Source: an uncultured Chloroflexia bacterium (lineage in GTDB: Bacteria > Chloroflexota > Ktedonobacteria > Ktedonobacterales > JADMIN01). Taken from it: 32,000 nucleotides of DNA. Under the pieces are notes generated by a model that did no database searches, had not been told where the DNA came from, and worked only from the letters and a program-made list of their open reading frames with translations. Position numbers and translations under genes: made by a program. Below are positions 14,670-15,707 of the stretch, piece by piece; position 1 is the first letter of the stretch; every line of letters starts with the position of its first letter. The stretch covers positions 1-32,000 of the forward strand of contig CAVRAI010000001.1 of assembly GCA_963718915.1 (NCBI GenBank), read 5' to 3'.

Positions 14670-15707
14670 ATGCCGTGGCGTCTGCGCCTCCCGCCTGCTC
14701 CCGCGCCAGAACAGCCCGCCGCCCAGCCACCCGCAGCGCCTCCGCCACCCGCGCCTGGCGGTGTGCCATCTCCATCCGCGCCGCCACCAGAGTCAATTGC
14801 TGGCGAAGTAGGGTCGCCCATCGTTACCCCACCCTCGCGCTCGACCAACCGCGCGCCACAGGCGAAGGCGATGGAAACGCTGCAATTCACGGCCTATCAT
14901 CCCAATGAAGCGCCGGTTGAGACCTCACAGACATTGCTGGTCTACGCGCACCTCGGCCAGCATGTACCGCAGGTGCAGCGGGACGCCGGAACATTCGCCG
15001 AACTGGGCAGCGCGCCCGCGACAGCGCTGGGCATGGCGCAACGCAAGATTCCGCGCAATATCGAGATTACCGTCGAGCCGCACATGGAGGGCGTCACCTT
15101 CTCGCCCGCACAGGATAGCTTCATCTGGCGCGGCGACTGGCATCGCTCGCTCTTCCGCTATACCGGGGCGAGCGCGCTGGCAGGCACCGTGCAGCGGGGG
15201 CGGATCGATATCTACGCCGAGCGCATCTCGCCCATCTGCACCATCGAGGTCGCGTTCTCATTCCACACGGGCATCCCGTCAACAGCGCTGGTTGTGCCGC
15301 ACGGCATCAACGTCACCGCCAACGTCTTCGACCGTGTCTTCATTTCATACAGCCACAGTGACCAGGAGGCAATGCGCCAGGCGCGCGAGAACTACGAAAA
15401 GCTGGGCATCACCGCCTACCACGATGATCTGCTGAAGGCGGGCGAGAACTACGAGCAGCGGCTGGCCGAGATGATCCGCGCCGCGAACATCTTTCACCTG
15501 CTCTGGTCCGAGACGGCGGCGCGCTCGTCCGAAGTCCGCAAAGAGTGGATGCTGGCGCTCAGCGCCAACAACGTCGAGCAGTTCATCCGTCCATGGTACT
15601 GGCAGCAGCCCTTTATCTCCCCTCCACCAGAGTTGGAGGCGCGCAAAATCTCGTTCCGCTATGAGCATCTGCGTCGCCGACTGCTTAACCCATCCACCTG
15701 GTTCTAA
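14670..15707 (+). CDS. TIR-domain protein with a Pro-rich leader and an unassigned N-terminal domain
   Basis: The C-terminal roughly 120 aa (about 15336-15640) reads VFISYSHSDQEAMRQARENYEKLGITAYHDDLLKAGENYEQRLAEMIRAANIFHLLWSETAARSSEVRKEWMLAL. This shows bacterial TIR_2-like landmarks: the FISYS..D start and the S..V.KEW segment carrying the conserved Glu. The preceding domain starts METLQFTAYHPNEAPVETSQTLLVYAHL and is unrecognised. An alternative start is ATG 14871. The frame is open from 14556 but has no earlier start codon. Confidence 0.75.
   Translation: MPWRLRLPPAPAPEQPAAQPPAAPPPPAPGGVPSPSAPPPESIAGEVGSPIVTPPSRSTNRAPQAKAMETLQFTAYHPNEAPVETSQTLLVYAHLGQHVPQVQRDAGTFAELGSAPATALGMAQRKIPRNIEITVEPHMEGVTFSPAQDSFIWRGDWHRSLFRYTGASALAGTVQRGRIDIYAERISPICTIEVAFSFHTGIPSTALVVPHGINVTANVFDRVFISYSHSDQEAMRQARENYEKLGITAYHDDLLKAGENYEQRLAEMIRAANIFHLLWSETAARSSEVRKEWMLALSANNVEQFIRPWYWQQPFISPPPELEARKISFRYEHLRRRLLNPSTWF

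Follow-up and report, generated by a model that had tools for sequence, protein, structure and literature searches.

The stretch of DNA analysed here (the window) comprises positions 1 to 32,000 of contig CAVRAI010000001.1 (GenBank assembly GCA_963718915.1), from an uncultured Chloroflexia bacterium assigned to the Ktedonobacteria. Near its middle lies an open reading frame (ORF) for a protein made up of an Ig-like β-sandwich and a C-terminal TIR domain, with two-component genes upstream and a convergent dCache_1 gene downstream (Table 1). The frame is the surviving 3′ two-thirds of a longer gene whose 5′ end has been replaced. Judged by sequence comparison, the β-sandwich and the TIR domain appear to form a widespread, undescribed module in which the two domains are almost always paired. 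Homologous loci, proteins and family alignments are labelled L, P and A, respectively.

At least four close relatives have an intact gene, for a protein of 540-560 aa. The longer relatives of the window protein (P0194, 562 aa and in the same 90% cluster; P0201, 544 aa; P0005, 472 aa; P0045, partial) add an N-terminal head of ~125 aa and an acidic, Pro-rich disordered linker of ~130-150 aa, and the order in the intact protein is head, linker, β-sandwich and TIR_2. The head domain was absent from the entire window when searched for by tblastn with P0045, P0005 and P0002. In L085, the kinase gene, the F420 oxidoreductase gene and an intact TIR gene follow one another. Window positions 12002-13673 matched L085 21-1711 at 88% nucleotide identity and positions 14607-15095 matched L085 2354-2845 at 80%; between these same flanks, 642 bp in L085 are replaced by 933 unrelated bp in the window. 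The breakpoints (13673/13674 and 14606/14607) were reproduced with L083, L084, L085 and L086, and homology to L083, L084 and L086 also restarted at exactly 14607. The replacement segment thus stands where the intergenic region, the start codon and ~184 codons, with the putatively TIR-like head, lay ancestrally.

The segment had a GC content of 50%, compared with ~61% for the genome, and no ORF ≥ 50 aa lay wholly inside it. Compared on both strands, it showed no similarity to the 642 bp of L085 or to L001, L002 or L086. Searches also returned no Rfam or tRNA match, no plasmid similarity, no exact match to a metagenome contig and no telling terminal or inverted repeats. The F420 oxidoreductase gene was considered as part of the insertion and ruled out, since L085 carries the same gene ahead of its intact TIR gene. 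P0003, a 278-aa call, was likewise ruled out as a sign of a second headless genome, since the contig ends before its reading frame closes.

The missing head was compared with known TIR domains. In the separate head ORF of L001 it scored 22 bits against TIR_2, and hhalign aligned it collinearly but weakly with the N-terminal TIR of P0048 (E = 0.03); comparisons with the family's own TIR and with the PDB gave no signal. On this modest evidence, a degenerate TIR-like domain that lacks the Glu is the probable identity of the head. The L001 orthologue itself (L001 9296-10906) fell into two ORFs, one of 168 aa for the head and one of 301 aa for the β-sandwich–TIR part. P0201, which belongs to the same 90% cluster as this orthologue, was unbroken at 544 aa. 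Either an indel error of long-read sequencing in the low-complexity linker produced this split, or head and module have become separated a second time, independently.

No ATG, GTG or TTG occurs in frame between the stop at 14553 and position 14670, and possible starts were limited to two, the ATG at 14670 (345 aa) and the Met at 14871, at the onset of the β-sandwich (278 aa). The entry in the public protein collection (P0001, beginning METLQF, from a contig of 509,910 bp) starts at the internal Met. L083 and L084 have the same Met, and an AGG/AAGG purine run lies ahead of it. The first-pass annotation had described a Pro/Ala-rich leader of roughly 65 aa. A 67-aa stretch containing 22 Pro and 12 Ala was indeed present in the longer ORF; it is not a leader but a relic of the ancestral interdomain linker of a longer gene. 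In-frame homology to the relatives extended 5′ of the ATG at 14670 (APSAGASSSDWWEIEE) and then ran into the TGA. The ATG itself falls inside the patch at ~14654-14700, where the window diverges and the relatives agree among themselves, and it is therefore a lineage-specific accident within the linker relic. Because the public call begins at 14871 and the ATG sits in this lineage-specific patch, translation of the 67-aa extension is doubtful.

Table 1. Features of the β-sandwich–TIR gene and of its surroundings in the 32,000-nt window
Feature	Position	Strand	Basis
ORF, 345 aa	14670-15707	+	ORF listing; coordinates as in the first-pass annotation
Public gene call of the β-sandwich–TIR coding sequence, 278 aa + stop	14871-15707	+	P0001, 100% identical
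Ig-like β-sandwich, aa 1-135 of the 278-aa form (aa 68-202 of the 345-aa ORF)	14871-15275	+	AlphaFold2
Short disordered interdomain linker, aa 136-152	15276-15326	+	Predicted local distance difference test (pLDDT) < 50 at residues 138-152, both models
TIR domain, aa 153-278 of the 278-aa form, including first strand VFISYSHSD	15327-15704	+	Pfam TIR_2, Foldseek, profile matches
Candidate catalytic Glu codon GAG, E225 (278 aa) or E292 (345 aa)	15543-15545	+	Invariant in alignments A1, A2 and A6
Optional Pro/Ala-rich extension, 67 codons	14670-14870	+	Collinear with the linker of L083-L086 except for the patch at ~14654-14700
Relic linker codons without an upstream start codon, APSAGASSSDWWEIEE...	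14607-14669	+	Homology to four relatives restarts at 14607
In-frame TGA closing the frame upstream	14553-14555	+	Frame reading
Replacement segment, 933 bp, ORF-free	13674-14606	.	Nucleotide comparison with relatives
Perfect hairpin, 11-bp stem, ACCGCTCCTC ACATC GAGGAGCGGT	15716-15740	.	Within the 87 bp that separate the convergent TIR and dCache genes
OmpR-type regulator	9977-10708	+	Pfam; syntenic in L001, L002 and L085
HAMP histidine kinase	10850-12949	+	Pfam; syntenic in L001, L002 and L085
F420-type NADP oxidoreductase, between the kinase and TIR genes	13024-13647	+	Pfam F420_oxidored; native to the sub-lineage, same place in L085
dCache_1 protein, convergent neighbour	15795-17726	-	Pfam; syntenic in L001, L002 and L086
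Type II methyltransferase	3909-5162	-	PADLOC MTase_II, E = 4e-29
Type II restriction enzyme	5166-6002	-	PADLOC REase_II, E = 4.5e-82

A TIR domain in the C-terminal third had been proposed in the first-pass annotation, and this assignment was upheld. Pfam TIR_2 (PF13676) matched aa 223-312 of the 345-aa ORF at 48.6 bits (E = 1.4e-12), above the gathering cutoff of 28 bits and judged far beyond chance, and both motifs (VFISYSHSD and SSEVRKEW) were found in the ORF. NCBIfam gave no match to the window protein, and the PADLOC matches, to the models for TIR-SAVED, ThsB and bSEFIR, were weak and lay in their TIR portions. AlphaFold2, supplied with a 41-sequence alignment, produced a two-domain model in which residues 155-278 of the 278-aa form adopted an α/β TIR fold with a flavodoxin-like core, strands and helices alternating over residues 155-257. 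When the whole model was compared with the PDB using Foldseek, 66 matches were obtained at E ≤ 1e-3 (some of them falling on the β-sandwich part) with TIR domains on top, among them SPARTA TIR-APAZ, SARM1, RPPT-TIR, RPP1, MyD88 and TRAM. The top match was 8qlp_E (SPARTA TIR-APAZ; E = 5.7e-06, root-mean-square deviation 1.9 Å, 112 columns). For profile searches of the PDB, a TIR-only alignment was used; RUN1, RPV1, SARM1, RPPT-TIR, ROQ1 and L6 aligned with this profile (best E = 1.3e-06). By profile and by model, then, the TIR domain is genuine.

The candidate catalytic residue shares a column with the Glu of RUN1 CLDEL (E100), the substituted position of RUN1 7s2z CLDAL and the Glu of SARM1 HKEIV (E642), a column which we take to mark the catalytic Glu of TIR NADases. 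The residue was kept in 121 of 123 diverse family members, in agreement with the earlier placing of a conserved Glu at this position, and the next residue was Trp in 116/123. Well-studied TIR NADases carry a WxxxE motif, in which a Trp four positions ahead of the Glu is taken as required. At that position (-4) the 123 family members had Y (58), N (23), F (12), E (8) or W (4), and the aromatic residues (74/123) resemble the WxxxE of known TIR enzymes. NAD-cleaving activity of the TIR domain is therefore probable to the extent that these positions predict it. The family as a whole is likely to be enzymatically competent; for the window's clade, which has Glu at -4, this is rather less sure.

The region ahead of the TIR domain was predicted with confidence as an Ig-like β-sandwich; modelled alone with AlphaFold2, it reached a pLDDT of 90 and a predicted template modelling score of 0.83, with ten strands and one inserted helix. 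It had been described as a β-rich stretch of ~200 aa matching no nameable family. The length was closer to ~135 aa, and the lack of a family stood, as no model in Pfam, NCBIfam or PADLOC matched. Searched against the PDB and BFVD (viral structures), the fold returned nothing at E ≤ 1e-3; the sequence profile had no match in the PDB, and none of the viral contigs encoded such a domain. The closest geometric match, short of E ≤ 1e-3, was a ZU5-containing tandem of ankyrin-B (6m3q_E, TMq 0.61), followed by the β-sandwiches of protein 4.2/transglutaminase, CARDB and pilus chaperones, and a weak profile affinity to CarboxypepD_reg repeats was seen (P0174). With no Pfam match beside it, the likeness to ZU5 and other Ig-like or transthyretin-like folds may be that of β-sandwiches in general.

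Conserved positions of the β-sandwich were mostly hydrophobic core residues. Its ratio of nonsynonymous to synonymous substitution rates (dN/dS) was 0.10-0.19, equal to that of the TIR domain, and no diversifying signal was detected. Because the β-sandwich is constant beside the TIR domain, conserves mainly hydrophobic positions and has a TIR-like dN/dS, it appears to be a structural core partner and not a diversifying sensor. The sensor role first suggested for it does not fit a constant, obligate partner under the same purifying selection as the TIR domain.

An exhaustive profile search with the β-sandwich recovered 1,891 cluster representatives (clusters at 50% identity) at E ≤ 1e-3 and 1,184 at E ≤ 1e-10. 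In 128 of 138 diverse representatives the β-sandwich was followed by a family-type TIR, with a median gap of 12 aa, and nine of the ten exceptions were fragments stopping just past the β-sandwich. Pfam TIR_2 was present in 89 of 97 family members. Proteins were counted as module members if a match to the A3 β-sandwich profile was followed by a family-type TIR within ~50 aa; the window frame (14556-15704) belongs here, with E = 1.2e-76 for the β-sandwich and E = 5.8e-64 for the TIR. A scan of the genome collection found the whole module in 7 of 77 loci, the rest being swamped by generic TIR matches to the VFISYS pattern.

Domains fused to the module included FHA (at either end), Ser/Thr kinase, TPR, HEAT, pentapeptide repeats and a second TIR, as well as a receiver (P0022), STAS (L009), FGE-sulfatase (L012) and predicted membrane anchors (P0037, P0041). 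Variability within the family thus seems to sit in the fused domains, not in the β-sandwich. The N-terminal extension ahead of the β-sandwich had a median length of 229 aa and exceeded 40 aa in 121 of the 128 representatives; the other seven (~5%) had < 40 aa. Stand-alone β-sandwich–TIR proteins of 280-310 aa thus occur in nature. No typical fused input domain was found in the window copy, the head of which is gone. Members with additional C-terminal parts included the β-sandwich–TIR–FGE-sulfatase protein of a Verrucomicrobiales metagenome-assembled genome (L012 7098-9704) and, in Actinomycetospora, a protein of 883 aa in which the module follows a weakly Hsp70-like stretch (L011 6834-9482).

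Gene order around the TIR gene was read from Pfam matches. A trehalose-phosphate synthase-type glycosyltransferase, the OmpR-type regulator, the HAMP histidine kinase and the F420-type oxidoreductase precede it; past it, in convergent orientation, come the dCache_1 protein, a PatA_N protein and ManC, and further on a dual-specificity phosphatase, an ArsR-type regulator, inositol-1-phosphate synthase and lipid-anchor biosynthesis genes. The dCache_1 gene adjoins the TIR gene in all close relatives, and the hairpin between the two probably serves both genes as a terminator, acting in either direction. No output domain could be recognised in the dCache_1 protein, which closes with a long low-complexity tail rich in Pro, Met and Gln (…MPPMPQMPYMPQPMAAPP…). 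Since the same block was kept in L001, L002, L085 and L086 (neighbours 65-94% identical, TIR module 76%), the TIR gene appears to have been inherited vertically within a stable region in this lineage. In L002, 87 bp separate the kinase stop from the TIR gene start.

Synteny was lost at 56% identity (L006), and more distant members had varied surroundings. In L008 the member lies within a cluster of Type I restriction-modification (R-M) and GmrSD genes, in L005 beside a Type ISP enzyme, and in L004 near AAA_21, DUF559 and PLDc_2 genes; L006, L009 and L012 have transport, glycosyltransferase, molybdenum-cofactor-type or hybrid-kinase neighbours (the hybrid kinase in L012). A consistently housekeeping setting of homologues had earlier been named as evidence against a defence role. 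Such a setting was found in part: this lineage keeps its gene in a two-component, dCache and housekeeping block and not in a defence island, and some distant homologues stand beside restriction systems. No partner gene recurred across the homologue loci examined, a lack that fits regulation supplied in cis. The first-pass annotation had seen no known partner within the window, and this held, as no ThsA, STING, SAVED, STAND, CBASS or cyclase gene was found among the annotated genes of the window.

At a distance of 8.7 kb upstream, the TIR gene is preceded by a Type II R-M pair in an island of 50-51% GC. Because of this low GC content and its absence from the syntenic relatives L001 and L002, the pair was probably acquired horizontally. 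Elsewhere in the window, a family-20 glycosyltransferase of the trehalose-phosphate synthase type is encoded at 8042-9772 (reverse strand; Pfam E = 2.4e-94); the ORFs at 7931-8620 and 8669-9817 (both forward) were rejected as genes, being antisense shadows of it of the kind typical in GC-rich DNA. A 697-aa protein at 28786-30879 (forward) has a C-terminal NYN nuclease (Pfam E = 5.6e-31; PADLOC NYN E = 1.8e-09) and a 540-aa N-terminal region without annotation. At 516-1160 (forward), a 214-aa DDE_Tnp_1 transposase fragment adjoins a 158-aa ORF without a family match. The cluster at 21484-28420 (inositol-1-phosphate synthase, two lipid-A-type acyltransferases, a PHP-domain protein, a GT4 glycosyltransferase and a CDP-alcohol phosphatidyltransferase) is similar to one for phosphatidylinositol-mannoside biosynthesis, an unusual pathway in bacteria other than actinomycetes.

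The window protein was compared with known TIR systems. It shares its fold, first-strand motif and Glu position with the NADase TIRs of SARM1, of RUN1, RPP1 and ROQ1, and of AbTir, and most of the family also has Ser-x-aromatic-x-x-x-Glu. It differs from them in its low sequence similarity, in the Glu at -4 of the window's clade, in an invariant Trp at +1 and in a short, Pro-rich C-terminal half (FIRPWYWQQP...PPPEL); its partner domain is a β-sandwich, whereas the oligomerising partner in NADase TIRs is a SAM, coiled-coil or NB-ARC domain. Like ThsB of Thoeris it is a small bacterial TIR protein, and PADLOC gave weak ThsB matches (E = 6.5e-4 over 60 residues, and 1.5e-3). However, Pfam ThsB_TIR scored 13.3 bits, under its cutoff of 21.2, Thoeris has no equivalent of the obligate N-terminal β-sandwich, and no ThsA-type gene (SIR2, or Macro with SLOG) was found among the annotated window genes, in L001-L012 or in L083-L086. 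The closest structural match, SPARTA TIR-APAZ, extends over the TIR part only; there is no APAZ in the protein and no Argonaute among the neighbours, and the TIR of the window protein is C-terminal. The PADLOC SAVED_TIR match spans model positions 10-93 of 404, again the TIR part only, and neither a SAVED or STING fusion nor a cyclase gene occurs in the window. As the defining partner domains and genes were sought and not found, the window protein is not a component of Thoeris, CBASS, TIR-SAVED, TIR-STING or SPARTA.

By analogy, the window protein most resembles the modular TIR effectors described for conflict systems of multicellular bacteria by Kaur, Burroughs, Iyer and Aravind (PMC7159879, PMC8195603). 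In the passages of these papers found by term search, TIR effector fusions occur in the same taxa (Chloroflexota, cyanobacteria and actinomycetes) and draw on the same set of fused domains (FHA, kinase, receiver, TPR, HEAT, pentapeptide and FGE-sulfatase/FGS), and a TIR-coupled β-sandwich is not mentioned there. The core genes of those systems (vWA-MoxR, STAND or GTPase) were not seen next to any member examined, nor were effector-associated adaptor domains.

The account that we consider rather probable is that the window holds a headless β-sandwich–TIR frame belonging to a widespread module, in which the TIR domain is the catalytic output and fused domains supply the trigger. The TIR domain would cleave NAD+ through the conserved Glu, resulting in NAD+ depletion or an ADP-ribose-derived product, and by analogy with other TIR enzymes its activation would probably need self-association. 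The β-sandwich would serve as a non-catalytic core partner in oligomerisation, positioning or autoinhibition, and the variable fused domains would give the trigger, often by phospho-signalling. Lacking a cis-acting head, the window copy would be either a live minimal β-sandwich–TIR protein or a recently disabled relic, two outcomes that we rate about equally. Several points weigh against this account. The role given to the β-sandwich is drawn only from its constancy and from the absence of conserved polar residues. The NAD-cleaving activity of the TIR domain is itself something that we infer, and the window's clade has the minority residue at -4 (Glu, 8/123). The truncated allele was not found in other assemblies, and a local assembly artefact is possible. 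No sigma-70-like promoter was recognised before either start, in a scan that is uninformative for Chloroflexota, and the selection signal in the remnant could largely predate a recent truncation.

That last signal bears on whether the frame is a dead relic, an unexpressed pseudogene that has lost its promoter, start codon and regulatory head and has so far gained no disabling mutations. All 278 codons were free of stops and frameshifts. With two close relatives as reference, the window lineage had 25 synonymous and 12 nonsynonymous private changes, giving a ratio of nonsynonymous to synonymous polymorphism (pN/pS) of 0.149, equal to that of relatives with intact genes (0.141 and 0.057). No decay was seen, and the pattern points to purifying selection on the remnant, with which a very recent truncation is compatible. 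A live protein is also favoured by the Met common to L083 and L084 at the domain start, by the AGG/AAGG run upstream of it and by the existence of natural minimal forms. In addition, no terminator-like site was found on the forward strand at 13600-15900, which includes the F420 gene end and the 933-bp segment, in a scan that is weak evidence for this phylum, and read-through from upstream would therefore be possible. A dead relic would nonetheless account for the loss of 642 bp including the start codon, the in-frame stop at 14553, the position of the sole upstream ATG in a lineage-specific divergent patch and the lack of a promoter-like site; moreover, the N-terminal extension is naturally missing in only 7/128 members. 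We regard it as a serious possibility, rated somewhat below even.

The remaining alternatives concern what the protein does. Co-orientation of the regulator, kinase and TIR genes, the short kinase–TIR gap in L002, retention of the block across L001, L002, L085 and L086, fusions to receiver (P0022), STAS (L009), FHA and Ser/Thr kinase domains, and the hybrid kinase beside L012 would all suit a non-immune, NAD-linked phospho-signalling output tied to the two-component and dCache/PatA_N genes, used in stress or developmental control in filamentous Ktedonobacteria. This synteny is limited to close relatives (65-94%), is gone at 56% and may reflect shared descent alone; an unrelated F420 oxidoreductase gene stands between the kinase and TIR genes in the sub-lineage, and the bacterial conflict systems described so far often contain phospho-signalling domains too, as far as the passages found in PMC7159879 go. 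Such a role is possible but somewhat unlikely. A complete single-gene anti-phage sensor-effector, in which the β-rich domain would detect infection and thereby activate the NADase, is improbable. Within the module it is the β-sandwich that stays constant; it is under purifying selection (dN/dS 0.10-0.19) with no diversifying signal, and has no viral homologue that we could find; the window protein is a truncation of a longer gene, in a stable syntenic block, and L006, L009 and L012 lie in housekeeping or signalling contexts. These points stand against the conserved Glu, the lack of a recurring partner gene, the weak PADLOC matches to the TIR parts of the ThsB and TIR-SAVED models and the settings of L008 (Type I R-M and GmrSD), L005 (Type ISP) and L004 (AAA_21/PLDc_2), all of which a sensor-effector would explain. 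Least probable is a scaffold in which the TIR domain serves protein-protein assembly alone, like MyD88 and TRAM, with no NAD+ chemistry. Foldseek does match the scaffold TIRs of MyD88 and TRAM, and the window's clade is without an aromatic residue at -4, but retention of the Glu (121/123) and the adjacent Trp (116/123), together with best profile matches to the NADase TIRs RUN1, RPV1, SARM1 and RPPT-TIR, makes this very unlikely.

What is new is a large, uncatalogued β-sandwich–TIR module with interchangeable inputs, the TIR domain itself being of a known kind. TIR domains are central to bacterial, plant and animal immunity, and control of their assembly decides between cell death and signal. 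A bolder extension of the favoured account, which we consider unlikely as it stands, is that the module is an effector cassette of filamentous and otherwise complex bacteria (Chloroflexota, cyanobacteria and actinomycetes), in which an NAD+-cleaving TIR assembles under the control of an Ig-like, possibly ZU5-like domain, with phospho-signalling inputs (FHA, kinase, receiver or STAS domains) as the trigger; the window allele, being headless, would then be constitutively primed or regulated in trans. If true, the cassette would be a bacterial counterpart of the adaptor-plus-TIR death and immunity switches of animals. The window copy is an ordinary locus, and its value lies mainly in being a natural experiment on the module without its head. 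The family of 1,891 clusters gives structural and biochemical studies a defined object and could form the basis of a new entry in the domain libraries, and its fusions suggest that phospho-signalling, beyond phage sensing, can gate bacterial TIR enzymes.

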